DNA of 63,888 bases, counting the filler, from Aduncisulcus paluster (lineage: Eukaryota), in NCBI GenBank assembly GCA_024181965.1. It is 31 parts of 31 records of this genome, joined end to end, with 100 filler letters (N's around TTAATTAATTAA, not from the genome) between each part and the next. Parts side by side here need not be neighbours in the genome. Positions count along the whole stretch, not along the records: positions 61,185 to 62,669 come from BQXS01007810.1; 30 more parts are not named here. One strand, written 5' to 3'. Shown piece by piece: positions 18,403 through 63,888 of this stretch. The notes under the pieces were generated by a model. It was given only the letters and a program-made list of their open reading frames with translations. It ran no database searches and was not told the origin of the DNA. Positions within the stretch are counted from its first letter, which is position 1; every line of letters begins with the position of its first letter. Made by a program: the position numbers and the translations under genes.

Positions 18403-18649
18403 NNNNNNNNNNNNNNNNNNNNNNNNNNNNNNNNNNNNNNNNNNNNTTAATTAATTAANNNNNNNNNNNNNNNNNNNNNNNNNNNNNNNNNNNNNNNNNN
18501 NNTGCGTCGTGGCGGAGGGTGGCGGCGGCGCCGATTGCGCCGAGACACCGCCGCATCCAGCAACCGTCAGCAGAGCAGCCAACAACGATCGGACGACGAT
18601 ACGGTCACCGCCAGCAGCGAGGGTGGCTGTTGTCATCTGGCGCGCCCGG

Positions 18650-33624: not shown

Positions 33625-33689
33625 TTTAACAGAAAAATTTTGGCGTCAATTATACAATAAACTTTAGTTTGATAGGATTTTGATCAAAA

Positions 33690-33842: not shown

Positions 33843-33874
33843 ATATGGAAGTCAAAGTCAAGGAACAAATTAAC

Positions 33875-33964
33875 TGTAAGCTAAGCCAAATTTATTTAAA
33901 TAAACGGTTCTATAAATAGGACATCCCTGAGAATGTCTGTAGATAAGGATCAATGTCCGTAACA
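33875..33964 (-). mobile_element. Solo LTR, family A (90 bp) with 5-bp TSD
   Basis: TGT..ACA termini, identical to 36392-36481, flanked by TTAAC at 33870-33874 and 33965-33969. Confidence 0.85.
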
Positions 33965-33999
33965 TTAACTAAAAAAATAATTTGAAGAATATCTTCCAT

Positions 34000-36391: not shown

Positions 36392-36481
36392 TGTAAGCTA
36401 AGCCAAATTTATTTAAATAAACGGTTCTATAAATAGGACATCCCTGAGAATGTCTGTAGATAAGGATCAATGTCCGTAACA
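36392..36481 (-). mobile_element. 3' LTR, family A (90 bp) with polypurine tract
   Basis: Identical to 33875-33964; sense-strand AAGGAAGAAGGAGTAG (36482-36497) immediately precedes TGTTACGG. Confidence 0.85.
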
Positions 36482-36523
36482 CTACTCCTTCTTCCTTGCA
36501 GCTGTGCTGTGAAATTATAAAAT

Positions 36524-36597
36524 TAGACGGACAGGGATTCGAACCCCGATCCACTAGGCAGTACACCGGCGTACTACCAATTGAGCTATCCTATGCC
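36524..36597 (-). ncRNA. Degenerate tRNA-like Pol III unit inside element A
   Basis: A-box TAGCTCAATTGG, B-box GGTTCGAATCC in a CGGGG/CCCTG T-stem, TTTT after it; acceptor and anticodon stems poorly paired. Confidence 0.7.
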
Positions 36598-37216
36598 TTT
36601 TCTATATTTTTCTATATTTTATATAAGCCTTTTTGCTCCTCTTGACCTTCCTCCTTACGGCACATGTATACCTCATTTTTCTACTATGAATTTATAAATA
36701 TGTATGTTGGAATATATACCATCATAATTGTATGTTATTTATGTGGATAACGTCTTCTAACTTCTGTGAGATTATCTCTCTTGATAAGACGGGTATTAAA
36801 TTTTTAATTTAATATTTAGCATACANNNNNNNNNNNNNNNNNNNNNNNNNNNNNNNNNNNNNNNNNNNNTTAATTAATTAANNNNNNNNNNNNNNNNNNN
36901 NNNNNNNNNNNNNNNNNNNNNNNNNGTTGCACCACTTGTAGTTTGAACTGTAGCTGGCATTTGTACAATAATATTATTGTTAGCTGTTCTACAGAATTTA
37001 TGCTTGGAGCAAATTTACTATTTTGAAATAAAATATAAATTCCCAGTTTTTGGATTTGAAACCAAACCGGAACCAAAAAATAAAACATTCTTAATCCTTT
37101 AATATAATAAGATGATAACTTCAAAATAATAAATAATAATAATAGTTTCTGTCAATAATAAATAAACAACATTGTAATACCATCATACTAACAATATCAG
37201 ACATTTGCCAAACAAC

Positions 37217-38487: not shown

Positions 38488-41400
38488 ATGGATCCAAAAT
38501 CAAGCTCAGAACGTAGCCAAGATATTGTATGTTTCTGAAAGTTTTTGAATTTATACATTTTATGATGTTTTATATAATTAATTTGAAAAATAATGCCCAT
38601 ATTGCTTTCATAACCCATTTTCTGTTTCGGGTGTTTATTATTGCTTCATTTCCACCAAAATCTCAATTAATTTATTAGATTCAAGAAGTTAAATCAGAGT
38701 TTATTCATGAAGGTGACGAATCTAGCTCTCCAATTCCTCGGGATTCCCCGAATGTTAAGAGTCCTGATATAACTGTTATTGAAGCCAAGAATAGGACCAA
38801 GGAAGAAGGTGATAATGGGTATGATCAGTGTTCTGCAGCACAAAAGATGATGAAAGGAGAGCGTAATTGGGAAGAATTTGGAGAGGTGGCTTATTGGGAA
38901 AGATTTATACCACAATTTACAAATATTTCCCTTCCTTTCTCCACATCTACTCCCATTAAAGGTGCTTATATTTGTATTGGAGGAGGAAAATATTTCTGTC
39001 CACCCTCACACCTTATCTTCTCTCTTACATCTTCAAAGGGGGAGAAAATGTTTAAAAAATATGAATTTCCTGAATTAGAAAATGATAGCTGGTTCTTTCT
39101 CCCTATTGATCTTTCTGATGTTATTCTGTGTGAGATTAAAGGGAAAGGGAGAAAGAAAGAGTCTTTTAGAATCTACTCCCTTGTTTTCATAAGTAGAGAA
39201 GAAACTCCTGAAGAAATCAAAGCTTGTGAAGCTAGAGAGAAACTATGGTCTGAAGCTCCAGTTGTGAAACCAGAGTTTCTTATGGAAGGATGGAAAGATT
39301 CTATTCCCATTCCACATGATGATCCAAAGCTTGTATATCCTTCATTCTCAATGGCTAAGGGAAAGAATGATGTGTTTCGTAAGGAATTTGAGGAGTATGA
39401 TCAGAGTTCAAGAGCACAAAAAATGTTAAGAGGGGAATGTGATGTTCACTTATCCCATCTTTCCATTCCTTTCCCATCACCTTGTCCAATGAAAGGTGCT
39501 TATATATGTGTGAATAAGAATGCTAGTTCTCCCTCTCTTCTCTTCACTTTCACTGATTGTGATGGTAAGAAGATATTCAAGAAGTATGAATTCACAAGAC
39601 CTAAACATTACTATGAATGGCACTTCCTTCCCATTGATATGGATAATGTTGTATTGTGTGAGATTGAAGGGAAAGGAAGTTGGTGGTGGAAGAATAGTCG
39701 ATACTTTGTCATCCTCTCCCTCGTATTCTTTCGAGAAGAAACCCCTGAAGAACGTTGTATTCGAGAATCCATTGAGGAACAATGGTCTAAAGCTGTATGT
39801 TCATTATATTTTATTGGTTTAATATTTTCACATTTCTTTGTTTTATTATTTGATACGATTCACGCTAATCTTGTTTTACAATATTATCTCTTGATTTGTT
39901 TCTAATACCATTATATATCTCTTTTTTCAAAAATGATATATAGCCCACCATTGAATCAGAGTTTGTGAATTCTGGCGATCCATCTGCCATCCCCATTCCA
40001 CGTGGTAATGCAGCCGTTAATAATCCTTCTTTTGAGATGGTCAAGGGAAAGAATGATTCGAAGAGTAAGGAATCTGAGGAGTATGACCAAAGTGAAAAAG
40101 CTCAAGAAATGTTGAAAGGTGAAGGAGAAGTGACATTATCCCATCTTTCCATTCCTTTCCCATCACCTAGTCCTATGAAAGGTGCTTATATCTGTGTGAA
40201 TAAGAATACTAGTTCACCCTCTCTTCTCTTCACTTTCACTGATTGTGATGGTAAGAAGACATGCAAGAAGTATGAATTGACAAGACCTGAACATTACTAT
40301 GAATGGCACTTCCTTCCTATTGATTTGTATAATGTTGTATTGTGTGAGATTGAAGGGAAAGGAAGGCGGGATAATAAGAATAGTCGATGTTTTGCAATCA
40401 ATTCTTTAGTTTTTCTTAAACAACGTATTTTATTGGGAACTGTTGAATATATATATAAGGGAGACTATTCATGCATTCCAATCCCTCGAGATGATCCAAC
40501 ATTTATCAGTCCAGAATTTTTTGCAATTAAAGCAAGAATTAATGGAAGAATGGAAATAGAATATGAAAGTTTATATTATCAGAGCGATTGTGCACAAGCG
40601 ATGATGATGATGAAAGGAGAGGGTGTTATTTTAGGTAATTCTGAGTTTTATTTTATTTCCATTCCTTTCAAATCATCAACACCTATAAAATGTGCCTATG
40701 TCTGTTTATCATCTCGTAAATCTCCATCTCTTACATTCACATTCACTTCTTCAAATGGAAGCAAAATATCATATTTATATAAATTTGATGCTAAATCCAC
40801 AGATCGTTGGTTTAAGCTTTCAATTGGTCTCTCTGATGTTATTTCATGTGATATCAAAGGAGATGAAGAAGTAAGGGAATATTTTGAAATTATTTCCCTT
40901 GCTTTTTATCGAGAAGGAACTCCTGATGAAGAGATTGCTCGAGAAAAACAAAGAATATATCTTAAAGAACTATGGTTTAAATCCCCACCTGTGATACCAA
41001 TGTCTGTAACCCAAGAAATTGTAGATTCCCTTGATGATACCTCAATCTTAAATCCTTCATTTTCAGATGTTACATGTAAGAATGATGTATGTTGTAAGGA
41101 ATCTGAGCGGTATGATCAGAGTTTGGAAGCACAAAAAATGTTAAAGGGGGAAGGTGACATAGTTTTATCCCATATTTCTATCCCTTTTCCATCACTTAAT
41201 TCAATTAAAGGTGCATATATTTCTGTTTCTAAATATTATCTCCCTGCTCTTCTCTTCACTTTCACTCTTTCGAATGGAAAGAAGATATCCAAGAGGTATG
41301 AATTCACAGAACCTGAACATGATTATAGATCTTTCTTTCTTCCTATTGATCTTCCAAAGGTTGTTTTATGTGAGATTCAGGGAAAAGGATCATGGGAATA

Positions 41401-42517
41401 TGAGAAGAGTCGATTTTTTGCAATAATCTCCCTTATTTTTATTAAAGGTGAAGATATTCCTCCCCTTTCTTCAGATTCCACAAAGCTTATCAAACATGAC
41501 TCTTTCACTCTCACTTCCTCTGCAACCATGACTCCTCAGTGCATCATTGGTCATGGTGGATTTGGTGAAGTTCTTCTTGTTGAAGTCGATGGTATTCCTA
41601 TTCCTTGTGTTCTGAAGAAAATGCTCCATGAAGCTGATGAAAGGGTTGTTAAAGAATGTCGAAAGGAGTTCAAGATGCAACGAAAGTTATTTAACAACCC
41701 CAAATGTTTCAATCGTATCCCTCGTCCTTTGTACATTCTTGACCTGCTTGATGCAGATTTACAGGGAGTATATGGATTCCTTATGGAGTTTTGTATTGGA
41801 GGCAGTGTGAATTCCTTTGCCAAGAGATGGTGTGTTGTTGAGAAGTCTACGAGTCAAGGGGAAGAAGGAGAGGAAGAAGATCTATCCGATTCCTTTTCGT
41901 CTTCAGAAGAAGATAGTGACGATCACAAACAGTTTGATCCCATGACACTGAACCCTGTTAAAGTGAGTGCTCTCTGTGTTGGCATGATTGAGTGTCTTGA
42001 TGATGTGTTTAGAGCAAAGAAGAGTCTTGTCCATCGAGATGTTAAACCAGACAACTTCCTTGTTCGTGTTGATCATGATTCAAATAAATGTACTATTGTT
42101 CTCTCTGATCTTGGAATGGTCCAAGTCTTAAATTCTCTTTCATCACGACTATCTTCAAGTGGGGTAACCAAAGTGTCTTCTCACTCCTCAAAGATTGCTG
42201 AAAAGGGGGCAAAACCTGAACCTCAACGTTCCATCTGTGGAACACTTGTGTATAATTCGTATGAAGCTCTTCGAGGGTATCAGACTCAAAAGAGTGATGC
42301 TTACTCTCTTGGAATGTCTATTCTTGCTCTGTTCATGGCAGATAACCCTTTCATAAATCTGCCTGGTTTAAGAGGAATTTGCAATCGATCGGACTTTGTT
42401 CTAGAACTATGTCGAATTCTCAAAGGTGATATGGGTCCAACATTAAAAGAATCACATCTCTTCAAATCCTTATTGTCAATTGAAAAGGGTGAATTCCGAT
42501 CTGTTCATGCATGTTGA
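38488..42517 (+). CDS. Spliced eukaryotic Ser/Thr-type protein kinase with five tandem ~150-aa repeats, 3' end truncated by an LTR
   Basis: Phase-0 GTATGT..AG introns at 38527-38678 and 39795-39943 join all exons in frame; repeats PIPRDxP..YDQS..SHLSIPF..KGAYIC..FLPIDL..CEI; kinase motifs GHGGFGEV, VLKK, HRDVKPDN, DLG, SDAYSLG. Confidence 0.85.
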
Positions 42518-43995: not shown

Positions 43996-46900
43996 TTAGC
44001 AAAAGAGACCATGAACTTCCGAAAAACTATCTTCCTCTTCCTCACCTTCTTCTTCCATCCTCTCCCTCCATGCATATTCGTCATATCCTTCGAATGGATA
44101 TGTCTTTGGATCAAACAACATTTCAACACCGCCACCTGTGCGTTCAATCAGGTCATACACGGATTGTCTCAAAGATCGTTCCTCATCAAATGGCATCCTA
44201 ACAAGCATGTGTTGGGGAGGGGTGTATTGGATGAGGGAAGAGTACGTGATTCGCTGTGGAGCTCCTGTACAAAGGCGATGATCTTCATCCGCGATTGCTA
44301 AATGTCGAGCGCTTTCATTTGCCTCTTCCTTTTCCTTGATATCTCCTAGTTCTCCTTGGAATTGGAGTGAATTCATTTCACATGATAAGTTACCACCTTT
44401 GACATCTTCGAAATTCATTTGATCTCCGGTCAACACATTGAAATATTCTATTTTCTCTCTTGAACAACATTGAATATTTAAAATAAACCCCATTCCAAAG
44501 CAAATATGACAAAAATAGCAATCCTTTGGTGTTGTTTCAAGATAAGGGAGAAGAAACAAAACTGGAATAGAATAGAAAATACCTAGAGAATAATCTTGAT
44601 AAATACAACGGGCAATATTTAAAAAATAAATGTAAAGATCATCATCAATACGAAAATCATAGAAAGTACTGGCTTCCATCATCCATGGTGACATGTCATA
44701 TTTGGGTGAAATATGCCGTATTAAAGATGAACTATACGATATCATCGAAATTAACTCAGCAAAATACTTATGTCCCCACAAATTACAATTAGTTTGGATC
44801 ACTTCCAACCACCCATCAAGAAGATCTTTTACCCTCTCAAATACTTCAATGGCTTGTGAAGGAATAAACACAAATTACGAAAAAATCTCAAAAAGGAAAA
44901 ATGAAAGTCCACATCAATCTTATCTCCAAAAAACTCTCTCTTNNNNNNNNNNNNNNNNNNNNTCATATTTGGGTGAAATATGCCGTATTAAAGATGAACT
45001 ATACGATATCATCGAAATTAACTCAGCAAAATACTTATGTCCCCACAAATTACAATTAGTTTGGATCACTTCCAACCACCCATCAAGAAGATCTTTTACC
45101 CTCTCAAATACTTCAATGGCTTGTGAAGGAATAAAACACAAATTACGAAAAAATCTCAAAAAGGAAAAATGAAAGTCCACATCAATCTTATCTCCAAAAA
45201 ACTCTCTCTTAACAACATCAAGAACAGGGTGGAAGAGAGGCCAAGCTTCAGAACAGAGGGCTTCATTCGGGATTTTATCTTGTGGATTGTCAAGAACACA
45301 TCCAAGAACGACCATTAAATATCCACAACATTCTGGATACAAGGATAAATATTCAGAAAACTTATTGATCAGCATGAGAAATGAACGTTTGACTATCAAT
45401 GATTGAGATCCAGCCATATAACGTAAAGATAAAGATATATCGAGTGGAATATTACCAAGTGATCTCTTCTCCTTTCTTCCTCTCTTAAGAATTCTTTGGA
45501 AAACTATAAATACATTGGCGGTAAAGGCTTTAGAAACCTTATTAGCCAACTTGGATGAGTAATATTTGCATATTTTACAATACTCTCCAGCAACATCTCC
45601 TTCCAACACTTCCTCACATCTTGATAAATGACCAATGAAAGTGTCAATGAGATCATTCAGATCAGGAATAGGGAGACAGATAGCATTTCCAGAAATATCA
45701 TGTCTAACAAACAACTGTAAACACTGAACACAAAGAACAATCTCTCTCTTGTGCTCTTCAATCTCACTCTTTGATTGGAATGCAAGGAAGACAGAAAGAA
45801 TATCATCTCGATGGTAGAGTTTGGAAGTGGATTCTGAGACAGGGGATTTGTTGAGAGTTTCAACTAATTCTGACCATTTTTTCAGAGAAGGATAACAATT
45901 ACTAAGATATCTTGTATAATCTTCACTCCAACCCCCATTCTTCTTGCACCATTCCATGTTGGTATCATATTTGGGAGATATGTGAGGAACAAGAGATGGA
46001 ACAGTGGAGAACATGGAAAATCGTCTGGACCAGTATTTGGTTCCCCAATTACCATCATCTTTCCCTTCTTCACTCTTCTTCTTTATCATCTCAAACCAAC
46101 CATCAAGAAGACCATCTTTAATACAATCATGCACTTCAACAGCTTGGGAAGGAATACAACTCAAATTAGCAAAGAACAATAAACAACGAATTACAGCATC
46201 ATCATCAAATGTAATACCTTTGGAAGCAGTGTCCTTAATCACATCCAAGACAGGATGGAAGACAAACCAGAGTTGTGAGGAACGATCTTTATGAGGTTTG
46301 GAATTATGGTTGTCAATTGTGATATTCTTCAAGATATTTATCCACAAGAAAAAGAACTTCTTGTCAGGATACTTCTTCATCCAAGGTAAGATGTGAGGGA
46401 GAAGAAGGGAAAAGAGGGAGTCCTTGGTGGGATCATCTTTTTTAATGGTTATAATGCTTGATTTATGAAGATATTTTGACAAAATAGAACAGATAATTAA
46501 AATGTCTTCCACAAGTTGATTTTCCAAGCGATAAATAATTCCTGATGGTAAGATCTTTGATAATAAAGGAATAATTACACCAAATACTTGAAATTGAAGA
46601 TATTCACATTGCATCATAGATGTACGAATGATTCGGAATACACTCATTGTGATAAGATTATTAATAGTTTCTTCATTCGTAATTTCTTCTCGGAAATAGC
46701 ACTCCACTCTGAGTATCTGAGTTAAAATTGGTGGAATAAACTGAGAAATTTGCTGTGAATCAAGCAAAATAGTATTATTATTTCCTTTAGAGGGACTAAA
46801 AGCCGTGTGCTTGATCAATAAGGAGATGCACTCAAAACATGTTATGAGAAGTTCTTCATTTGCTCTAATTATTGAATTATGGCAAGAATATGCATCAATT

Positions 46901-47428: not shown

Positions 47429-48865
47429 TTATTCTTTCCAGATTTCCACCAATTGCCGAAGATTCTTATTATCTTTGTATAAACAATGCCGTTCCCTCTC
47501 CAAACTTGATATTTTCTTAGCAAAAACCTTACAATCAGATGTGACTTCTGTTATTTTCCCCTTTAATTCGAGTCTCTGGCGATCCCATTCTTTTTCAATT
47601 TGTTCAATATATGCGAGCTTATCTTTCAATCTTTTGCTCAAAATCTCAATTTGTTCACCTTTTTCAATAGATTTTGCCTCAATTTCTTTTTTTTCATCTC
47701 TAAATCTTTCCGTGGCCAAGTCAAGTTTATGTTTGAGTTCATCACATATTCGATCACACTTTCTTTTCTCTTCTCCTACACCTTCAAGGGATATTTTTAA
47801 TTTATGCTCCAATTCTTCTATATTTCTTTCACATTTTCTTTTTTCTCCTTCAACTTCTTGAAGAGATATCTTCAGTTTGTCAACCATATCTTCCAACTTG
47901 CCTCTTTGGGAAGCTCTCTGTTCCAATTCATATTTAATCTCTGTTTCTTTCCTTTCCAGTAATGTAAGCGTACGTTCTGCAGCCATGGCTCTATCCTCAG
48001 CTCGCTGAGTGGATCTTAGCTGCTCTTGAAGTTGATGGCGCATTTCTTGAGATTCTCTCTGAAGCGACGAAACTCTCCTTTCCAACTCTTCTTTTGTACT
48101 CACCGAATCACGTTGGAGAACAGATACTCGCCTGAATAAATCATCCCGCTCGTCAGATATCTTTGAAACACGGAGTCTCCATTCACGACGCTGCTCTTCT
48201 TTCTCAGCATCAAGAGCCTCAAGTTCCTGAATTTTAGCTGTTAATTCGCCATGTTCTTTCTGTTTAAATTTGAGTAATTCTTTATATTTTTCTTCGAGAG
48301 CAGAGAATTTTCCTTTAAGTAGATCCTTCTCCTGCGAGTGTGAAGAAAGGGAATCTTCAAGAGATCTTCCTAATTCTGCAATTTTAGTGGAAGATTCACC
48401 TTCTATTCGCTTCAAATTAGCTTCTAATTCAAAATTACGAGTTCGATAACTTTCAAGTTGAGTTTCAAGTTGATGGAGAATTTGGGCATTTTCAACTTTA
48501 ACTTCTGCAACAGCATCAGCTTTAGCCTTTTCAATATCTGTGGATGTTGATAATTTGTCAATTAGTTTTTCTATTTCCTCACTTCGCGATTGAAGTTGGG
48601 ATTGAAGAGATTTTCTTTCTTGAGCAAATAGTCTCTCTAACTCAGCGTTCGCAAGTTTTGCTGCCTCTAGATCAGAAGTTAATTCAATATTTTTTTGTCT
48701 AATAGCTAAAAATTGGGTTTTAAGGACAGAAAAATTTTGCTTCATTATTTCTTGCTCTTTCGTCATTTGTGCCAATAAATCATCTCTTTCTTCATAGTTA
48801 GGGTGAGCAATCCCTGAAATATCGAGAGTTTCCATCCGGATTTTTATCAAAAGAGAGAATTTCAT
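47429..48865 (-). CDS. Long coiled-coil protein (possibly centriolar, CEP83-like)
   Basis: 478-aa heptad-rich E/K/L ORF; family assignment is a weak impression only. Confidence 0.6.
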   Translation of the reverse strand: MKFSLLIKIRMETLDISGIAHPNYEERDDLLAQMTKEQEIMKQNFSVLKTQFLAIRQKNIELTSDLEAAKLANAELERLFAQERKSLQSQLQSRSEEIEKLIDKLSTSTDIEKAKADAVAEVKVENAQILHQLETQLESYRTRNFELEANLKRIEGESSTKIAELGRSLEDSLSSHSQEKDLLKGKFSALEEKYKELLKFKQKEHGELTAKIQELEALDAEKEEQRREWRLRVSKISDERDDLFRRVSVLQRDSVSTKEELERRVSSLQRESQEMRHQLQEQLRSTQRAEDRAMAAERTLTLLERKETEIKYELEQRASQRGKLEDMVDKLKISLQEVEGEKRKCERNIEELEHKLKISLEGVGEEKRKCDRICDELKHKLDLATERFRDEKKEIEAKSIEKGEQIEILSKRLKDKLAYIEQIEKEWDRQRLELKGKITEVTSDCKVFAKKISSLERERHCLYKDNKNLRQLVEIWKE

Positions 48866-49607
48866 TCGATGTCGGGAAATCTTTCGTCATATTCCATATT
48901 AGCAACCCAAATTGAAAAGATTCAACAAAAATAACTTTATTTAAAACATTCAATTAAATATAACTATTGTAGATTACATTATACAGCCTTTCCATTTTTN
49001 NNNNNNNNNNNNNNNNNNNTTTTTGTCTAATAGCTAAAAATTGGGTTTTAAGGACAGAAAAATTTTGCTTCATTATTTCTTGCTCTTTCGTCATTTGTGC
49101 CAATAAATCATCTCTTTCTTCATAGTTAGGGTGAGCAATCCCTGAAATATCGAGAGTTTCCATCCGGATTTTTATCAAAAGAGAGAATTTCATTCGATGT
49201 CGGGAAATCTTTCGTCATATTCCATATTAGCAACCCAAATTGAAAAGATTCAACAAAAATAACTTTATTTAAAACATTCAATTAAATATAACTATTGTAG
49301 ATTACATTATACAGCCTTTCCATTTTTCTCGGGCGAATAATCTCTAATATATAGATAATATATTTTAAACCATAATGTGTTATAAAAAAATTTAGAATTA
49401 AATTTCTTGTAATGTTGCTAGATTAGCTGATAATAGTCTTCGGTATCAATATTTGAGATGATAAGGTTGAAGAATATTAAATAGGTGAAATAGTAATACG
49501 AATACTAGTATATTTCGATTATCCCTGTTTTCGCAGACATTATCGTTTTCAACAGAGATAAACAGGTAATTTGCCTGTTTTCCTGACAAAAGTAATATAA
49601 ATCATTT

Positions 49608-54003: not shown

Positions 54004-56004
54004 TTAGAAATAAAGATCTCTGACCCCCTTAATTTTGATCATGTCAAGCTTCTTCATGAACGACTTTTTGCGAGATTCAGACGGGATATTCTCCATTTCC
54101 TTTCCAATCAGCTCCCATCCGATCTTCTGTGTTTCTGGGGAAGCATAATCAATGAGATACTCAGCCAACGTGAGCAAGGCATTTGGCTGGCAATAGTTCC
54201 CAATGGCCCCACTCTTAGCAAAGTTCATGAACACCTCTCCAGTCCTGCCACTTCTGTAGCATCCAGTGCAGAAGGAAGGAATGAACCCTTTCTTCATCAA
54301 GTCACGGACGACCTCATCAAGAGAACGGTGGTCAGAGAGCTCGAACTGTCCCTCGTCCTCTGTGGTCCCAACTTTTGTCTGCACCTCCTTCTCTTCCTCG
54401 CCCTTGCTGTAAGCACCAGGGTCAGTGCGGGAGGCAGCACTCAGCTGACTCACTCCAAGTTGAAGGAGTTCATCACGCATGGCTTCAGACTACACGGGTG
54501 GAGAGGATAATCCCCGTATATGGGAGAGACACACGCAGCACAGCAACGATCTTCTTGAACTGCTTGTCATTGACAGGGTAAGGCACAACATGGGACAATG
54601 GGGCATCCTTTGCAGGCTGGATACGAGGCACGGAGACAGTGTGAGGCCCTGTTCCCCAGTTCTTGTCCAGGTGAGCACCATGCATGATCATGGCAAGGGT
54701 GTCCCATTTGTAATCGTAGAGCCCATACAACACACCCAGACCCACATCGTCAATGCCTCCCTTGTTGGAACGATCCATGTTGGTGATACGGAAGTCGTAG
54801 TCAGCTTTAGGCCCTGACGAATGTACCTTGGCAAAGGTGGGACGATGGTATGACTCCTGGAAGAGAGCAACCGTTCCAATGCTATCGGTGGCCTTGAGAC
54901 GCTTCATATCACTCACGGAGAGAGTAGGAACCTCAACATTAATCCGACGGATCGAACTACCCTTCTCATCACGGACAGCATTGGTGGCAACCATTGCATC
55001 AACAAAGGAGTCGAAGGGATACTTGGGACTCTCACCACAAAGCATTAACGTACGTTTGTGACCTTGTTTCACAATAGCTCGGGCATCAGCAGCAACCTGA
55101 CTACTATCAAGAACAGTCCTTGGGGAATCTTTGTTGTGACAGCTGAATCCACAATATAAACAACCGTTAATGCACTCATTTGCAGTGTATAAAGGTGCAA
55201 ACATGACAACACGCTTTCCATAGATTTTCTCTTTGATGAATTTGGCAGTCTTGTAGAGTTCTTCCATCAATTCTGGATGTTCTTCTTCATCAATGTTCAA
55301 AAGAAGAGCCGTTTCCTCGATTGACAGACCTTGAATGAACTCAGATCCAAATTGACACCCTACAGGAATCTTGAATTGAGCAGCATCCTTGGCCTTCTTA
55401 AGAATACGTTTCACGGTATCTACATCGGTGGAAGCAAGCTCTGTACTAACGAGGGCCCTACTAATTCTCNNNNNNNNNNNNNNNNNNNNGGTGCAAACAT
55501 GACAACACGCTTTCCATAGATTTTCTCTTTGATGAATTTGGCAGTCTTGTAGAGTTCTTCCATCAATTCTGGATGTTCTTCTTCATCAATGTTCAAAAGA
55601 AGAGCCGTTTCCTCGATTGACAGACCTTGAATGAACTCAGATCCAAATTGACACCCTACAGGAATCTTGAATTGAGCAGCATCCTTGGCCTTCTTAAGAA
55701 TACGTTTCACGGTATCTACATCGGTGGAAGCAAGCTCTGTACTAACGAGGGCCCTACTAATTCTCTCTTCGTCAATAATATCCTTGGGATGAACGGTTTC
55801 TGGGTGAGGATCTTTTTCTATACTCCAGAAAGTTCCAGGATGTTTCCAAGCACGTTTCAATGGTCGTTTCATTCCCTCAATTGTAACTGGACCAGGAATA
55901 GTGATTCCTGTGGGAGTACTTTGAGAGAAAGAATGGGAAACTCCAGAAACAAGTGATTCTGGAATTATTTCTGATATAGAAGGTTTTAATATGGATGAAA
56001 GCAT
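54004..56004 (-). CDS. hydG: [FeFe]-hydrogenase maturase HydG with N-terminal extension (dup artefact at the N gap; 1-bp frameshift near 54492)
   Basis: VMFAPLY..CINGCLYC radical-SAM motif, FQESYH, GPHTVSVPRI, and C-terminal PSFCTGCYR-x20-C (CX2CX22C) diagnostic of HydG; ends GVRDLYF. Confidence 0.92.
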
Positions 56005-57626: not shown

Positions 57627-57803
57627 NNNNNNNNNNNNNNNNNNNNNNNNNNNNNNNNNNNNNNNNNNNNTTAATTAATTAANNNNNNNNNNNNNNNNNN
57701 NNNNNNNNNNNNNNNNNNNNNNNNNNCCGTGAATACCCGACGGGGAAGATAAAGTGAGTTCTTTTAATTAAGCAAACTTTATTTCTTTGTACTGTAAGAA
57801 GGG

Positions 57804-57903
57804 TGTTACGGATAATTATTTTAATGTTTCTCACATATCTATTTTTAGATCCAACTGTTCGTTCTATTTTTATTTAATAAATTGTACCAATCATAGTACA
57901 ACA
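57804..57903 (+). mobile_element. 3' LTR, family D (97-100 bp) with polypurine tract
   Basis: AAGAAGGG then TGTTACGGA..TTTCTCA..CTATTTTTAG..AATAAATTGTACC..ACA; cuts the Gag-like ORF on the opposite strand. Confidence 0.7.
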
Positions 57904-58264
57904 CCTTGGCTTTGCCGCCGTCGGAACATGCATCGAATTCAGCGAGAAAACCTTCACAGTATGTCATCATAGATTCAACAGTGCAAGCAGAGACTTTGGG
58001 GAGACTTCTGATGGCTCTCTTCAACTGAGGAACAGTAGTACCGAAAGACTTAGTAACCTCCTTGATAAAACGTTTCAGAGCACCAGGAACAGTAAGATCA
58101 GTCATAGATACACGCTTTTTAAGAACACGAAGACAAGTTGGAGAAATCAATTTGTTGAGTGACTGAGTACCACCTTCAGCTTCATAAACCATGAATTCTT
58201 TGATGAAACATCTCCAATCAGACTTGAGAGGCTTGGATAAGTAAGGAATTTTTGAGAACTGCAT
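57904..58264 (-). CDS. Gag-like ORF, interrupted by LTR D
   Basis: IPYLSKPLKSDWRCFIKEFMVYEAEGG motif. Confidence 0.6.
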
Positions 58265-58349
58265 AATCAATTATAACGAGCAAAAATAGTCAGTATTAAT
58301 AAGACAATAATTTTGTTAGTACAAAATAATATTATTTTGTGATCAGCAC

Positions 58350-58437
58350 TGTGAGTTTCTCATGGTCTAATTATAGAACCATGCCCCGTCTTCATTTCTA
58401 ATAAATTGTACCACTGTTGTTTCTATAGATTTTGACA
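58350..58437 (+). mobile_element. 5' LTR, family B (88 bp)
   Basis: TGTGAG...TTTGACA; exact reverse complement of 61553-61640 and 61952-62039 with different flanks. Confidence 0.85.
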
Positions 58438-58452
58438 ATATATATATTTAGC

Positions 58453-58812
58453 ATGAAGAACAGTAAGATCGTGTCCATTGGTGTTAAAAAACTCAAAGAA
58501 AGGGAATTACCAGCACCATACTTAGAATCTCTCGATTCCGACACTTGGGAACGTTTTCTTGCGGAATATGACCACTACCGTTCCCTTGGAGGGAAAAGAT
58601 TCTGGCCGACACTTTGCTCTGCCGCAGCTTTGAGGATAATTGCGATTATTGCTAAGGTCACTGACTTTACTATCTCAAAAAACCGGATCAGAGCCAGAAA
58701 GAGAATTACTGCGATATTTCGCGGAAGTTCAAAACAATCCATCTCGGATCAGCTGAAAGGAACAAGAATGCGACCTGAACTCACTATGAAGGCGATATCC
58801 GAATATATCGGC
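58453..58812 (+). CDS. Gag-like ORF of family B (partial)
   Basis: PAPYLESLDSDTWERFLAEYDHYRSLGG motif; starts 15 bp after the LTR. Confidence 0.6.
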
Positions 58813-58912: not shown

Positions 58913-59757
58913 ATCACCTTGGTTTCCAAAGCTGAGCCACTGGTAACCTTTTGGTCCAGGATCGCCGTCACAACCATTCTGGTGTGATGAGACTCTGTCA
59001 CACTAAGAGAGAACGTTGGGTTATCGATATAGTCTCTCAGGATCTCCTGCAGTTTCCTGCTGGTCCCAGAGGCTGTACACGAGATCAGGGCTGGTGCTGC
59101 CTTCGTCTTCTTGATGTGCACATCCAGCCTTGTGGCCCATTCTCTCAATTTGACAGATGTTGTGTCTTCGAGCATTGGCGGAGGAGTGGGATCTTGTGTC
59201 ACCACGACCAGAGGAACTTGAGGGGTGTGAGACACACTTGCCCTGTCACCTTCGGCCTTGTCCTTCTTCATGGAGTGAATCTCCTTCGCCAGCTTGAGGA
59301 TAGTCTCCTCTAATGTCGCCAGTCTCTTGTCAGACTTGGTGCTTTGATCCACAGAGATATCGTTACCTCCCAGGTCCTCGTTAGACTCTTCTTCATCCTT
59401 CACAGAGGCTCTTCGAGCTTTTTCAGGTTTCTTCCCTTCAGTGGCCCGAGGGGTGGAGTGCTTCTCCGGGGTAGCCGTCTTCTTGTCATCCGGCACCTCT
59501 GTCGTCCTCTCGGAGACTTCGCCCATGGCTTTGATGTCCTCAGCCGTTTGTTCGGCTGCCTTTTGAGCAACTTCCTCAGCCATCTTCTTCTTCAGAGCCT
59601 CTAACTCTGTGGCTTGAGCCTTGAGAGCTTCCACCTCCTCGTCCGTCAACTTGTGAGACCGGGGAGACTCTGGGAGGTCCTCGGGGGCCTCCTCAAACGA
59701 CACCAGCTCGAGCAAGGAAGCGTCATCCGCAAGGCTCGTCGATCTCCTCTTGGGATC
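58913..59757 (-). CDS. Gag-like/hydrophilic ORF fragment, 5' end replaced by LTR C
   Basis: Charged low-complexity region, then PPPMLEDTTSVKLREW; abrupt GC change at the LTR junction. Confidence 0.45.
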
Positions 59758-59858
59758 TGTTAACTTGGTACAATTTACTAAAATAAATCGGAACAATATG
59801 ATCTATAAATAGAACATGAGAAATACATATGAAAACGATAACAAACAATATAATAACA
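59758..59858 (-). mobile_element. 3' LTR, family C (101 bp) with polypurine tract
   Basis: TGTTA..TAACA termini; sense GGAGGGAGGAAAAAGGGAAG directly upstream; TTTCTCA, CTATTTATAG, AGTAAATTGTACC. Confidence 0.75.
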
Positions 59859-60616: not shown

Positions 60617-60686
60617 ATGGAAGATATTCTTCAAATTATTTGGCTTAGCTTACAGTTAATTTGTTCCTTGACTTTGACTTCCATAT

Positions 60687-60839: not shown

Positions 60840-61184
60840 TTTTGATCAAAATCCTATCAAACTAAAGTTTATTGTATAATTGACGCCAAAATTTTTCTGT
60901 TAAAATGGTACAAACAAGAAGCCAATTGAAAAACGCCAATACAGGTGAAAATGATGAAGAATTTGAAATTGTTGGTGATTTACCAACTGAACGCCATGAT
61001 AGTGATGCCAGTCATGGTGAAAATGCCAAAGAATCTGATGAAAAGGAAAAGTCTGATTTATTGTCCGATAATGAAATTTCAAAGNNNNNNNNNNNNNNNN
61101 NNNNNNNNNNNNNNNNNNNNNNNNNNNNTTAATTAATTAANNNNNNNNNNNNNNNNNNNNNNNNNNNNNNNNNNNNNNNNNNNN

Positions 61185-61551
61185 CAAAAGGTTTTCCAAT
61201 GTCAAAACGCTTCTTAACATTCTTTTTAACCTCTTCTTGGTTCTCCCTCGCAGATTCCTGGATTTCCAGAATCCTTTCCGTGATATCATCGACGTAAGAT
61301 TTCAAAAACGATGGAGTCAGATCGGAAATGTGCTTGTCGAAACAGAAAGGAACAGCCTCATTAGCAGTCAAATCCTTCCCAAAAATCATTTCGTAAGGTC
61401 TTTTTTTCGTGGTTCTATGAATTCTCATATTCAAATAAAACCTTATTACCGGTATTAATTCCGATAAAACGTACTCCTTCTTGGGTATTGTCGACTTCAT
61501 CTTTAGCAAAGACCTCTTAATAACTCCATTCAAACGTTCAACAATCCCCAT
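61185..61551 (-). CDS. Retroviral-type DDE integrase, C-terminal part, interrupted by LTR B
   Basis: GIVERLNGVIK (catalytic Glu helix), LNMRIHRTTKKRPYEMIFG, then ..ARENQ..KKRFD..F as in Ty3/Gypsy integrases. Confidence 0.8.
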
Positions 61552-61552
61552 C

Positions 61553-61640
61553 TGTCAAAATCTATAGAAACAACAGTGGTACAATTTATTAGAAATGAAG
61601 ACGGGGCATGGTTCTATAATTAGACCATGAGAAACTCACA
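61553..61640 (-). mobile_element. 3' LTR, family B with polypurine tract
   Basis: Sense GGGGGGAAC (61641-61649) precedes TGTGAG. Confidence 0.85.
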
Positions 61641-61951
61641 GTTCCCCCCAGAACCAAGACTCGTCTCAGTTACAAATAAATAAAAAATAAAAATTAAAAA
61701 AAAAAAAAAAAAAAAGAAAAAGAACATGGAACGGGAGAGAAGACCTCAGCCTTAAGAACTCCCAACCATACGTAGGGGTGACCGCAGAACACCTAGAGCA
61801 GACCTCAGCCCGCTGATCAACCTCAGCTGATCATATTCCCAACAACACGCAGAANNNNNNNNNNNNNNNNNNNNAGTCCCGAAATATTCTGGACCTTATC
61901 ATAATACTTCGGTATGTAATCATGAAAATAATTAAAAAAACCAAGAATACT

Positions 61952-62039
61952 TGTCAAAATCTATAGAAACAACAGTGGTACAATTTATTAGAAATGAAGA
62001 CGGGGCATGGTTCTATAATTAGACCATGAGAAACTCACA
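61952..62039 (-). mobile_element. 3' LTR, family B (another insertion flank)
   Basis: Identity with 61553-61854 starts exactly at the LTR end; the flanks differ. Confidence 0.85.
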
Positions 62040-62265
62040 GTTCCCCCCAGAACCAAGACTCGTCTCAGTTACAAATAAATAAAAAATAAAAATTAAAAAA
62101 AAAAAAAAAAAAAAAGAAAAAGAACATGGAACGGGAGAGAAGACCTCAGCCTTAAGAACTCCCAACCATACGTAGGGGTGACCGCAGAACACCTAGAGCA
62201 GACCTCAGCCCGCTGATCAACCTCAGCTGATCATATTCCCAACAACACGCAGAAGGGGATGATAT

Positions 62266-62341
62266 AAAATGGCGGAGGTGGGGTTCGAACCCACGTCTTC
62301 CACACCGCAGCATGAAGGACTAACGTCTCGGCCAAATATTG
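62266..62341 (-). ncRNA. Degenerate tRNA-like Pol III unit inside element B
   Basis: A-box-like TGGCCGAGACG, perfect T-arm GTGGG-TTCGAAC-CCCAC, 3' CTCCGCCA then TTTT; 5' acceptor strand does not pair. Confidence 0.7.
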
Positions 62342-62769
62342 TTCAAATAATTTTTATGTTGAACGTATCAATGAAAAATACTTCTTGTTCCTTCTTCTTA
62401 TTTAAAATTAAGAAGTGAAATAAAAGAACAACATATAATTAACATAGATAGAGTGTATTTTCCCCACTTCTACCCCTCTCAGAGCGAAGGCTCGATGGAA
62501 GGAAAGGGAAAAATACGATCTGAAATAGAAAGATATTTCAATGAAAAAGATGTAATATCTTTAAAGTATAACGCTTATCACTAGTGTAATTGATAATTGT
62601 TAACCGAATCGCGACTCGGTTCGTGTGTGAAAAAAGCAAAAAGTCGAAAAATTTGAATTAGCAAAATTANNNNNNNNNNNNNNNNNNNNNNNNNNNNNNN
62701 NNNNNNNNNNNNNTTAATTAATTAANNNNNNNNNNNNNNNNNNNNNNNNNNNNNNNNNNNNNNNNNNNN

Positions 62770-63888
62770 CGGCGCCAGCCCCGACGTGATGACGTCGTCG
62801 GTGACGGCGCCGCTCGAGGTGCAGTTCGGCCAGATGCCGAATCTGAATCAGATGAGTTCGGTGAGTTCGGCCGGCTCGTCGGTCATCACGCTGCAATTCG
62901 GCCTGTCGATTTCGCTCGACGTCGCCGAGCAGGAGGTGCAGGCCGCGATCAATGCCGCGGGCAATCTCTTGCCGTCGGACCTGCCGGCACCGCCGATCTA
63001 CGCCAAGGTCAATCCGGCTGACGCGCCGATCCTCACCCTCGGCCTGACCTCGAAGACGATGCCGCTGACGCAGGTGCAGGATTTCGTCGACACAAGGCTG
63101 GCTCAGAAGATCTCGCAGCTGCCCGGCGTCGGCCTCGTCAGCATCAGCGGCGGCCAGCGGCCCGCGGTACGCATCCAGGCCGACATCCGCAAGCTCGCGG
63201 CCTATGGCCTCAACATCGACGACCTCCGCANNNNNNNNNNNNNNNNNNNNNNNNNNNNNNNNNNNNNNNNNNNNNNNNNNNNNNNNNNNNNNNNNNNNNN
63301 NNNNNNNNNNNCACCATCAATGCCAACGACCAGATCCGCAATGCCAGCGACTACCGCTCGCTGATCGTCGCCTACAAAAACGGTTCGCCGGTCCGCCTCA
63401 GCGACGTCGGCAACGTCGTCGACGGCGCGCAGAACGACAAGCTCGGCGCCTGGATGAACGAGACGCCGGCAATCATCCTCAATATCCAGCGCCAGCCCGG
63501 CGCCAACGTGATCTCGGTGGTGCAGGGCATCAAGGACCTGCTGCCGCAATTGCAGGCCACGCTGCCGGCGGCGATCGACCTGAACATCCTGACCGACCGG
63601 ACCGTCACGATCCGCGCCTCGGTCCGCGACGTCGAATACGAGCTGTCGCTCGCGGTAATCCTGGTCGTGCTTGTCATCTTCGTGTTCCTGCGCTCGACCC
63701 GCGCCACGCTGATCCCGAGCCTGTCGGTGCCGCTGTCGCTGGTCGGCACGCTTGGGGCGATGTATCTGTTCGGCTTCAGCCTGAACAATTTGTCGCTGAT
63801 GGCGCTGACCATCGCCACCGGCTTCGTGGTCGACGACGCCATCGTCGTGATCGAAAACATCTCGCGATACATCGAAGAGGGCGAGTCT
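62770..63888 (+). CDS. mdtB: RND multidrug efflux permease MdtB/MuxB (internal fragment)
   Basis: [54 protein letters not shown]. Confidence 0.88.

Follow-up and report, generated by a model that had tools for sequence, protein, structure and literature searches.

The described elements closest in kind to those reported here are Helenus and TRIMp3, non-autonomous retrotransposons with long terminal repeats (LTRs) that, in the excerpted account of them, are 311-1263 bp long, carry a tRNA-derived part in the LTR and possess a primer-binding site (PMC10886601). In this report we examine a stretch of 63,888 nt from the draft genome of Aduncisulcus paluster (GCA_024181965.1), referred to in its entirety as the window, and describe a 65-nt tRNA-derived unit (unit B; 62270..62334, minus strand) that stands ahead of the 3' LTR of a retrotransposon family that we call B, together with a counterpart (unit A) in a second family, A. 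As in the excerpts on Helenus/TRIMp3 (PMC10886601), we find tRNA-derived stretches whose A and B boxes are conserved and that are unlikely to work as tRNAs, along with 5-bp target duplications and a polypurine tract. The differences lie in placement and priming. Whereas the Helenus/TRIMp3 unit resides in the LTR and can start a transposable RNA polymerase III (Pol III) transcript, the units described here are internal, lying 230 nt (B) and 42 nt (A) before the LTR; and whereas those elements have a tRNA-complementary primer site, none follows the 5' LTR here, and the unit is closed by TTTT.

Other known systems resemble these elements in part. The tRNA-derived short interspersed nuclear elements (SINEs; class SINE2) share the tRNA-derived head, the A and B boxes and the decayed helices, but the unit reported here sits within another element and has no tail, no 3' part derived from a long interspersed nuclear element and no target duplication of its own; unit B is followed by TTTTATATCATCCCC, with neither an A-rich or simple-repeat tail nor a flanking direct repeat seen. 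Pol III-directed integration, known from Ty3 and Tj1 and also from DGLT-A of Dictyostelium, likewise brings LTR elements close to tRNA-type Pol III units in compact genomes of protists or fungi, but there the target is outside the element, a few bp from the LTR end, whereas here the order is unit, purine tract, 3' LTR. The CYC5:CYC3 pairing of Ty1 and the tRNA-iMet bridge of Ty3 also involve an untranslated 3' element, close by the polypurine tract and U3, whose complement lies just downstream of the primer-site region; in the extracts of that report the yeast pairing is proven by compensatory mutants and includes a host tRNA, whereas we have one predicted 9-nt complement whose tRNA-like partner would be encoded by the element (PMC4974528). 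Chromoviruses of the Tf1/Sushi type, and Tj1, are chromodomain Ty3/gypsy elements that also lack a primer site for a tRNA 3' end, but in the excerpted descriptions self-priming of the Tf1 type demands that the 5' end of the RNA match the primer site, whereas here the corresponding complements are at chance level and a 12-nt palindrome abuts the LTR (PMC4600332, PMC6317226). In the open-access literature, supplements aside, we found no description of an internal tRNA-like unit ahead of a polypurine tract.

Two tRNA-derived units upstream of 3' LTRs

We propose that unit B is a decayed copy of a tRNA gene, lodged in the non-coding 3' part of a Ty3/gypsy chromovirus-type element with 88-nt LTRs in an anaerobic fornicate protist, and that it may have retained a Pol III/TFIIIC function; from the sequence features set out below, we put the probability of this reading at roughly 0.45. 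The unit keeps an A box, a B box in an intact T arm, the canonical spacing and a TTTT right after position 73, and it lacks the acceptor, D and anticodon helices that a tRNA needs. Its host is most likely a chromovirus with such very short LTRs, or a non-coding derivative of one.

On the minus strand, unit B runs from an A-box-like TGGCCGAG (62334-62327) through CTCCGCC plus A, and it is as long as a class-I tRNA from position 8 onward. Folding puts a UGCG-looped hairpin (62295..62320) in the place of the anticodon arm. The T arm, GTGGG-TTCGAAC-CCCAC (62278..62294), contains the B box GGTTCGAACCC, and its inner 12 nt form a perfect palindrome. The 3' end, CTCCGCCA (62277-62270), consists of CTCCGCC and a discriminator-like A, directly followed by a TTTT that resembles a Pol III terminator (62266..62269). 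Downstream lies a 213-nt non-coding stretch (62042..62254, minus strand; assembled a second time at 61643-61854) that a Logan unitig joins to the unit, with a T21 run (62115-62095) and the purine tract GGGGGGAA (eight purines, 62048-62041), and then the 3' copy of LTR B. In the sense direction, the end of the unit is 222 nt upstream of the tract and 230 nt upstream of the LTR. A preliminary description of this DNA, made by a model from the sequence, had listed an A box, a perfect T arm, the 3' end and TTTT about 230 bp upstream of a polypurine tract and LTR B, and we recovered every one of these on the minus strand. That the sequence is tRNA-derived, and that it is on the sense strand of the element ahead of the polypurine tract and 3' LTR, is likewise supported. 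The sequence upstream of unit B (62342..62669) is AT-rich, with no open reading frame (ORF) of at least 75 aa on either strand; in all, at least 630 nt ahead of the 3' LTR B are free of ORFs, and no 5' LTR appears before the contig ends. A second purine-rich tract on the minus strand lies upstream of both units, at a distance of 46 nt for B (62381-62399) and 39 nt for A (36628-36658).

Unit A (36524..36588, minus strand) has the A box TAGCTCAATTGG, a T arm at 36548-36532 with the B box GGTTCGAATCC, and TCCGTCT plus A, then ATTTT. It is about 25-26 nt upstream of the purine tract AAGGAAGAAGGAG (36497-36485) and 42 nt upstream of the second copy of LTR A (36481-36392), tract and LTR together covering 36392..36497 on the same strand. 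Both units are therefore alike in setting: each precedes a purine tract plus LTR on the sense strand, within AT-rich DNA that is free of ORFs. That the two differ in sequence and agree in position had been claimed before and is correct; to this we add that their geometry is identical and that they align without gaps, with about half of the positions identical. In each, the A box is 40 nt ahead of the T stem, all 5/5 pairs of the T stem form, and TTTT comes 8-9 nt past it. The features of Pol III genes (A box, B box, spacing and oligo-T terminator) are present in both units, the box consensus being taken from the excerpted Helenus report (PMC10886601). A sensitive blastn comparison of the 3' regions of A and B returned nothing beyond motifs of at most 10 nt.

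The composite of A box, T stem and TTTT appeared in 0 of 300 first-order Markov simulations of the window; for the B box by itself the rate was 0.32 per simulated window. By our own arithmetic, with approximately four junctions of purine tract and LTR in about 33 kb, the chance that two such units both fall at most 250 nt upstream of one of them, and on the right strand, is of the order of 10^-4.

The host elements

The LTRs of families A-E are 86-97 nt long, end in TGT...ACA and have in common the core CTAwwwATAGAwCC ... AATAAATTG.ACC; TATA-like and AATAAA motifs occur in the LTRs here. LTRs of 88-97 nt are among the shortest known. Because the core is shared, we regard A and B as sister families, and the earlier statement that B is an element unrelated to A has to be given up. 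Purine tracts precede the LTRs designated A2, B, D and E, representing four families.

LTR B is present three times, with 0 mismatches to a 34-nt probe and 100% identity over 90-91 nt. The 3' copy (61952..62039, minus strand; 88 nt, TGTGAG...TTTTGACA) is followed by the flank AGTATTC. A second assembled copy (61553..61642, minus strand) is joined to an integrase fragment (61554-61186), and since that fragment belongs to another element, this junction indicates nested insertions. The fragment, on the minus strand, starts in the middle of the domain at the end of LTR B, and it has 38 residues more than its A. paluster relative P0003, possibly reflecting a mis-predicted intron in P0003. The third copy (58350..58437, plus strand) is a 5' LTR on a different contig (57727-58812). 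The sequence after it is ATATATATATTTAGC, then an ATG at 58453, so that the polyprotein ORF opens 15 nt past the LTR. The 120 aa encoded on this contig match the N-terminus of an A. paluster polyprotein of 1342 aa, P0004, at 68% identity. P0004 has matches to reverse transcriptase (RVT_1, PF00078), RNase H (PF17917/PF17919), integrase (rve, PF00665) and chromodomain (PF00385) models, and family B is therefore probably of the Ty3/gypsy chromovirus type. Pfam searches of 79 ORFs from the window found no reverse transcriptase or protease on the retrotransposon contigs and only a weak rve match, that of the relative P0003 (24 bits, under the cut-off). The starts of two homologous gag-like ORFs, 57848-58270 (minus strand) and 58453-58812 (plus strand), diverge from either side of LTR B, and the end of the first is cut by LTR D (57806-57891), making this region a nest of insertions.

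A solo copy of LTR A (33964-33875) is flanked by a 5-bp target duplication, GTTAA, which fixes the boundaries of the short LTR; the solo LTR A is the only copy for which a duplication was seen, and no element in the window is complete. The contig at 60034-61084 lacks 83 nt (33892-33974), comprising most of this solo LTR, and is otherwise identical, with a 4-nt overlap at the junction (33870-33969 vs 60638-60641). We take the difference to be a deletion allele or a variant of assembly, and no clean empty site.

As a rough control, we scanned with P0004 for Ty3/gypsy loci in metagenomes. None of the resulting 77 loci (223,700 nt; 28-50% identity, all of them distant) contained a B-box match, and no tRNAs were found in the 23 of them that were scanned for these. 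The absence of a B box from the 77 loci argues that such units are no general feature of Ty3/gypsy elements.

Position of the units relative to the element ends

Unit B is probably inside the mobile element. For family A, the flanks of the second LTR copy (AGTAG and ACAGA) show no matching duplication, so this copy is terminal and not solo; and since the GTTAA duplication sets the length of LTR A, unit A lies outside the LTR, on the internal side of a 3' LTR. For family B, the end of the unit is 15 nt from a block that was assembled beside two different downstream flanks. Placing the units outside requires two elements, each truncated right beside a tRNA-like unit.

Cover of the locus by assembled contigs came from a DNA run coded X1 (82 contigs) and from a second coded run, X2 (6 contigs), which may be RNA; no contig of X2 covers 62280-62669, and this speaks neither for nor against expression. 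Run X1 supports contiguity: a 116-nt Logan unitig spans 62180-62295 without differences, and the listed unitig depths over 62137-62669 are alike (5516, 6564, 5854 and 5351); overlapping unitigs were summed, which inflates some bins, and it is the similarity of these depths that we use, not an absolute copy number. The summed depth over the core of LTR B in the same run is 46,000-73,000, about 8-13x that of neighboring sequence. Against a constant arrangement, five contigs pass the LTR start into other sequence. At 61875-61952, a 4001-nt contig of run X2 has the flank and then unlike sequence where LTR B starts, which suggests either a form of the site without the insertion or a further copy of the flank.

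tRNA likeness and RNA folding

In the window, ARAGORN called 0 tRNA genes and Rfam gave 0 matches at gathering score. Under relaxed settings, unit A scored 15.3 bits against the Rfam tRNA model (threshold 29; E = 1 in 181 nt), and for unit B the only matches were to transfer-messenger RNA (tmRNA) models, whose similarity to its T arm and 3' end scored 12.9-15.3 bits. When a canonical cloverleaf is laid over the alignment of A and B, the paired cells number 3/14 in the acceptor stem (0/7 for B), 3/8 in the D stem and 4/10 in the anticodon stem, against 10/10 in the T stem, where two pairs differ on both sides. We rejected the possibility that the unit is a tRNA gene, its acceptor, D and anticodon helices being broken and neither ARAGORN nor a gathering-score Rfam match recognizing it. 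Because the T stem is fully paired and the other helices are mostly unpaired, the decay is very uneven and has spared exactly the elements that Pol III would use.

The minimum-energy fold of unit B is a D-armless shape of three helices in which CUCCGCCA pairs with UGGCCGAG (7 Watson-Crick pairs of 8). The energy of this fold is about 2 standard deviations better than that of shuffled sequences (z = -1.96), and 7/200 shuffles fold equally well. The preliminary description had reported an unpaired 5' acceptor strand that leaves the 3' strand free. The first part agrees with the 0/7 canonical pairs of unit B, but the pairing of CUCCGCCA with UGGCCGAG speaks against the second. Unit A folds differently, with the central hairpins of A and B in different registers, and thus no RNA structure shared by A and B outside the T arm is supported.

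Leader complementarity, palindromes and priming

The leader of family B (58437..58458, plus strand) consists of the palindrome AATATATATATT (58437-58448), located as previously described and directly after the 100% identical copy of LTR B, and then AGCATGAAG (58450-58458), spanning the ATG of the polyprotein. The assertion that palindrome and tRNA-like unit belong to one family has the 88 identical LTR bases in its favor, but the two are on different contigs and LTR identity is the sole link between them. The palindrome is not a trivial feature. Palindromes of 12 nt are found exactly at the LTR end, in the place expected of a primer site, in 2/2 of the 5' LTR junctions in the window, the other being TTTTGATCAAAA of family C (33678-33689, the same as 60840-60851); in 28126-62669 there are 19 non-linker palindromes of this length. 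In family C, an 8-nt complement between U5 and leader, TTAGTTTG / CAAACTAA, would put the palindrome in a hairpin loop, in the manner of a dimerization site.

No TGG-type tRNA primer site follows the 5' LTR, the sequence there being ATATATATATTTAGCATG. A search for a complement to CTCCGCC(A), proposed in the preliminary description, was run on the window: the first 40 nt past the 5' LTR contain no TGGCGGAG, nor is it beside any other LTR, its exact copies being at 18510 (on a bacterial contig), at 59176 (inside an ORF) and in unit B itself. The last 26-30 nt of unit B form a duplex with the leader of only -4.2 kcal/mol, which 466-499 of 500 shuffles equal or better. Given the absence of TGGCGGAG by any LTR and this poor duplex energy, the 3' end of unit B as a tRNA-type primer is not supported. 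The view that palindrome and tRNA mimic are parts of a single replication mechanism is not supported either, for it draws on one family, seen on two separate contigs. Self-priming of the Tf1 type was also considered and rejected: the complements between LTR and leader are 7 nt in B (reached by 510/2000 shuffles) and 8 nt in C (189/2000), a chance level, and neither adjoins the LTR.

A different part of the unit does find a complement in the leader. The segment CTTCATGCT (62317-62309, minus strand), in the 5' strand of the central hairpin, is a perfect 9-nt complement of AGCATGAAG, two bases past the palindrome and across the start codon; this single instance, noticed post hoc between two separate contigs, was reached by 3/2000 shuffles and extends to 11/12 with flanks. 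The three control pairings across families, in which unit B was set against the leader of C and unit A against the leaders of B and of C, gave 4-5 nt only. The 9-mer AGCATGAAG occurs at two places only in the window, the leader and unit B, and the complement ends at the first base of the hairpin loop. The duplex of the whole unit B with the leader has an energy of -23.6 kcal/mol, matched by 3/500 shuffles. A search of the window for partners of the unit A hairpin or the family-C leader found none of relevance. The unit may thus have a role in replication, of which this complement is a weak hint.

Competing explanations

On the reading that we favor, the unit would have entered the element through a template switch of reverse transcriptase to a Pol III transcript, or as a SINE-like insertion, and its retention would reflect the tolerance of LTR elements for foreign sequence between the coding region and the polypurine tract. 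In the excerpted literature, marker genes are routinely inserted upstream of this tract in such elements (PMC4600332). Selection would then hold the A box, B box and T arm, and the cassette would still bind TFIIIC/Pol III and produce a tRNA-like RNA of about 70 nt with an oligo-U end. Several points weigh against this reading. The evidence consists of two units on short, Illumina-type draft contigs, with no full-length element, and their tRNA likeness by covariance model is weak (E = 0.23 in 34.5 kb for B, with A not listed). Pol III would terminate at the TTTT and at the T21 run, ahead of the LTR, so the cassette could not drive a transposable transcript, and no benefit to the element is explained. 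No unit is present within about 80 nt before LTR D (57806-57891) or LTR E (59765-59852). Finally, a related 2584-nt contig (depth 1102), which over 62137-62244 differs by 11 letters and 5 gaps, retains the hairpin, its stem two pairs shorter on both strands, but seems, judging by eye from 30 letters, to lack the T arm, acceptor strand and TTTT, which would make the T arm dispensable at least in that copy.

These last observations are also what would be expected if the unit had no function at all, being a pseudo-tRNA or SINE-like Pol III transcript, itself already reduced mostly to the Pol III boxes, of which recent copies entered a dispensable 3' region in two families. Such an origin accounts for the position, the sense orientation and the absent 5' acceptor strand without invoking function, and it fits both the related contig that seems to have lost its T arm and the lack of a unit close to LTRs D and E; in the excerpts available, the tRNA-like parts of Helenus were also judged non-functional as tRNAs (PMC10886601). 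It sits poorly with the same geometry in two sister families, with a T stem paired in 10/10 cells while the other helices are broken, and with the family-specific 9-nt leader complement. It is the uneven decay that leads us to favor a retained Pol III/TFIIIC function over an inert copy, which we consider possible but unlikely. That complement would have an explanation if the unit, in genomic RNA or as a small Pol III RNA of its own, paired CUUCAUGCU with AGCAUGAAG after the palindrome, either circularizing the RNA for strand transfer or, once cut in the UGCG loop, serving as a primer similar to a half-tRNA. The rarity of the complement among shuffles (3/2000), the 4-5 nt of the cross-family controls, the restriction of AGCATGAAG to two places in the window, the duplex energy (-23.6 kcal/mol; 3/500 shuffles), the stop at the first loop base, the leader without a tRNA-type primer site and, by contrast, the chance level of the LTR-to-leader complement all point this way. 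Precedents exist in excerpted reports for 5'-3' pairing (PMC4974528) and for half-tRNA primers (PMC6317226). Nevertheless, this is one post-hoc instance in pieces from different contigs, 6/9 of its bases are ATG plus AAG, and the site starts 12 nt past the end of the LTR, away from U5, which a minus-strand primer has to adjoin; we consider either role improbable.

The unit could also be a host tRNA pseudogene beside an element that inserted in the Pol III-targeted fashion of Ty3, Tj1 or DGLT-A, or it could be enclosed in a long LTR of the Helenus type. LTR elements in compact genomes often target tRNA genes, according to the portion of the literature excerpted (PMC4600332); the region is rich in nested insertions; and the purine tracts 39-46 nt upstream of both units (62399-62381 and 36658-36628) are placed as they would be before a long LTR. 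A targeted gene, however, would sit outside the LTR end, and the unit is internal to a purine tract plus a 3' LTR of the same orientation. Both versions require that the 5' part was lost, in two cases, to within 16-25 nt of the unit; a long LTR is further contradicted by the three B copies with three right flanks and the GTTAA duplication, which fix a short LTR, and by a depth over the unit that is not doubled, as a repeated long LTR would require. We regard both versions as highly doubtful. Less credible still is the literal primer model, in which the 3' acceptor strand, CTCCGCC(A), stays unpaired and, together with the palindrome, serves to prime reverse transcription. The 0/7 canonical acceptor pairs, the leader without a tRNA-type site and the palindrome exactly at the LTR end in 2/2 junctions are in its favor, but the 3' strand can pair with TGGCCGAG, its complement is missing from the 40 nt after the 5' LTR and from the vicinity of any LTR, and 466-499 of 500 shuffles match or beat the -4.2 kcal/mol duplex of 3' end and leader, so that the model is largely refuted for the sequence at hand. 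The least probable explanation of all is a chance resemblance, or a chimeric assembly of a piece of bacterial tRNA or tmRNA with protist DNA. In its favor are the many contaminant contigs of bacterial origin, the tmRNA-like character of the best Rfam matches and the gap with duplicated flanks in the contig; yet the composite was seen in 0/300 simulated windows, a twin unit exists on another contig, and an independent set of contigs bridges 62180-62295 without differences.

Composition of the window

The window strings 31 short contigs (1.0-14.6 kb) together into a pseudo-molecule, with linkers of the form N44-TTAATTAATTAA-N44 between them (for example, 57627-57726 and 62670-62769), and for this reason the neighborhood of two contigs within it has no meaning. 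The sole published A. paluster draft is an Illumina-only MaSuRCA assembly of a culture that contained food bacteria (PMC9933649), which fits the mixture found in the window. Bacterial contaminants account for many of the contigs, recognized by a GC content of 0.6-0.69 or by fragments of TonB receptor, MCP, RND pump or rpoB; many of those in 1-28025 and 62770-63888 are such contaminants, of high and low GC, with fragments of pyruvate kinase and M17 peptidase as well. The non-bacterial remainder is AT-rich eukaryotic DNA with long orphan ORFs, and the nearest named proteins are those of the fornicate Aduncisulcus paluster, which is free-living, at 67-73% identity.

The contig of unit B (61185-62669) contains a 20-N gap (61855-61874) with a duplicated block across it, 61553-61854 being the same as 61952-62254 at 99.7% identity. 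Exact duplicates of 250-310 nt flank 20-N gaps at 44696-45210, 48692-49327, 55194-55765 and 61553-62254; these are unmerged overlaps typical of the assembler. The offset of 77 nt in the duplicate at 61855-61874 is consistent with two copies of one element that have different flanks. Elsewhere, 38923-41446 is occupied by tandem repeats, each about 690-1030 nt long and diverged to 65-84% identity, within and ahead of an 857-aa ORF that has a protein kinase domain at its end.

Significance

In practical terms, units of this kind are tRNA-like false leads in draft protist genomes and a cause of assembly breaks. For the biology of the elements, a Pol III module of this internal kind, set in the 3' untranslated part of elements of the chromovirus type, would broaden in three ways the theme set by Helenus, where tRNA-derived modules were recently recognized within the LTRs of miniature retrotransposons, extending it to very short LTRs, to elements without a tRNA primer site and to a barely studied free-living relative of Giardia. 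Taken to its furthest, the evidence would allow for a lineage of protist chromoviruses that does without host tRNA primers, having a palindrome at U5 and a tRNA-like Pol III RNA of its own, the anticodon-arm remnant of which pairs with the leader as a bridge or as a primer similar to a half-tRNA; we offer this as speculation with the odds heavily against it. If the leader complement is real, family B would be a rare case of a retroelement with its own tRNA-like partner for 5'-3' communication or priming, and such a partner, if true, would bear on the evolution of tRNA priming and self-priming.

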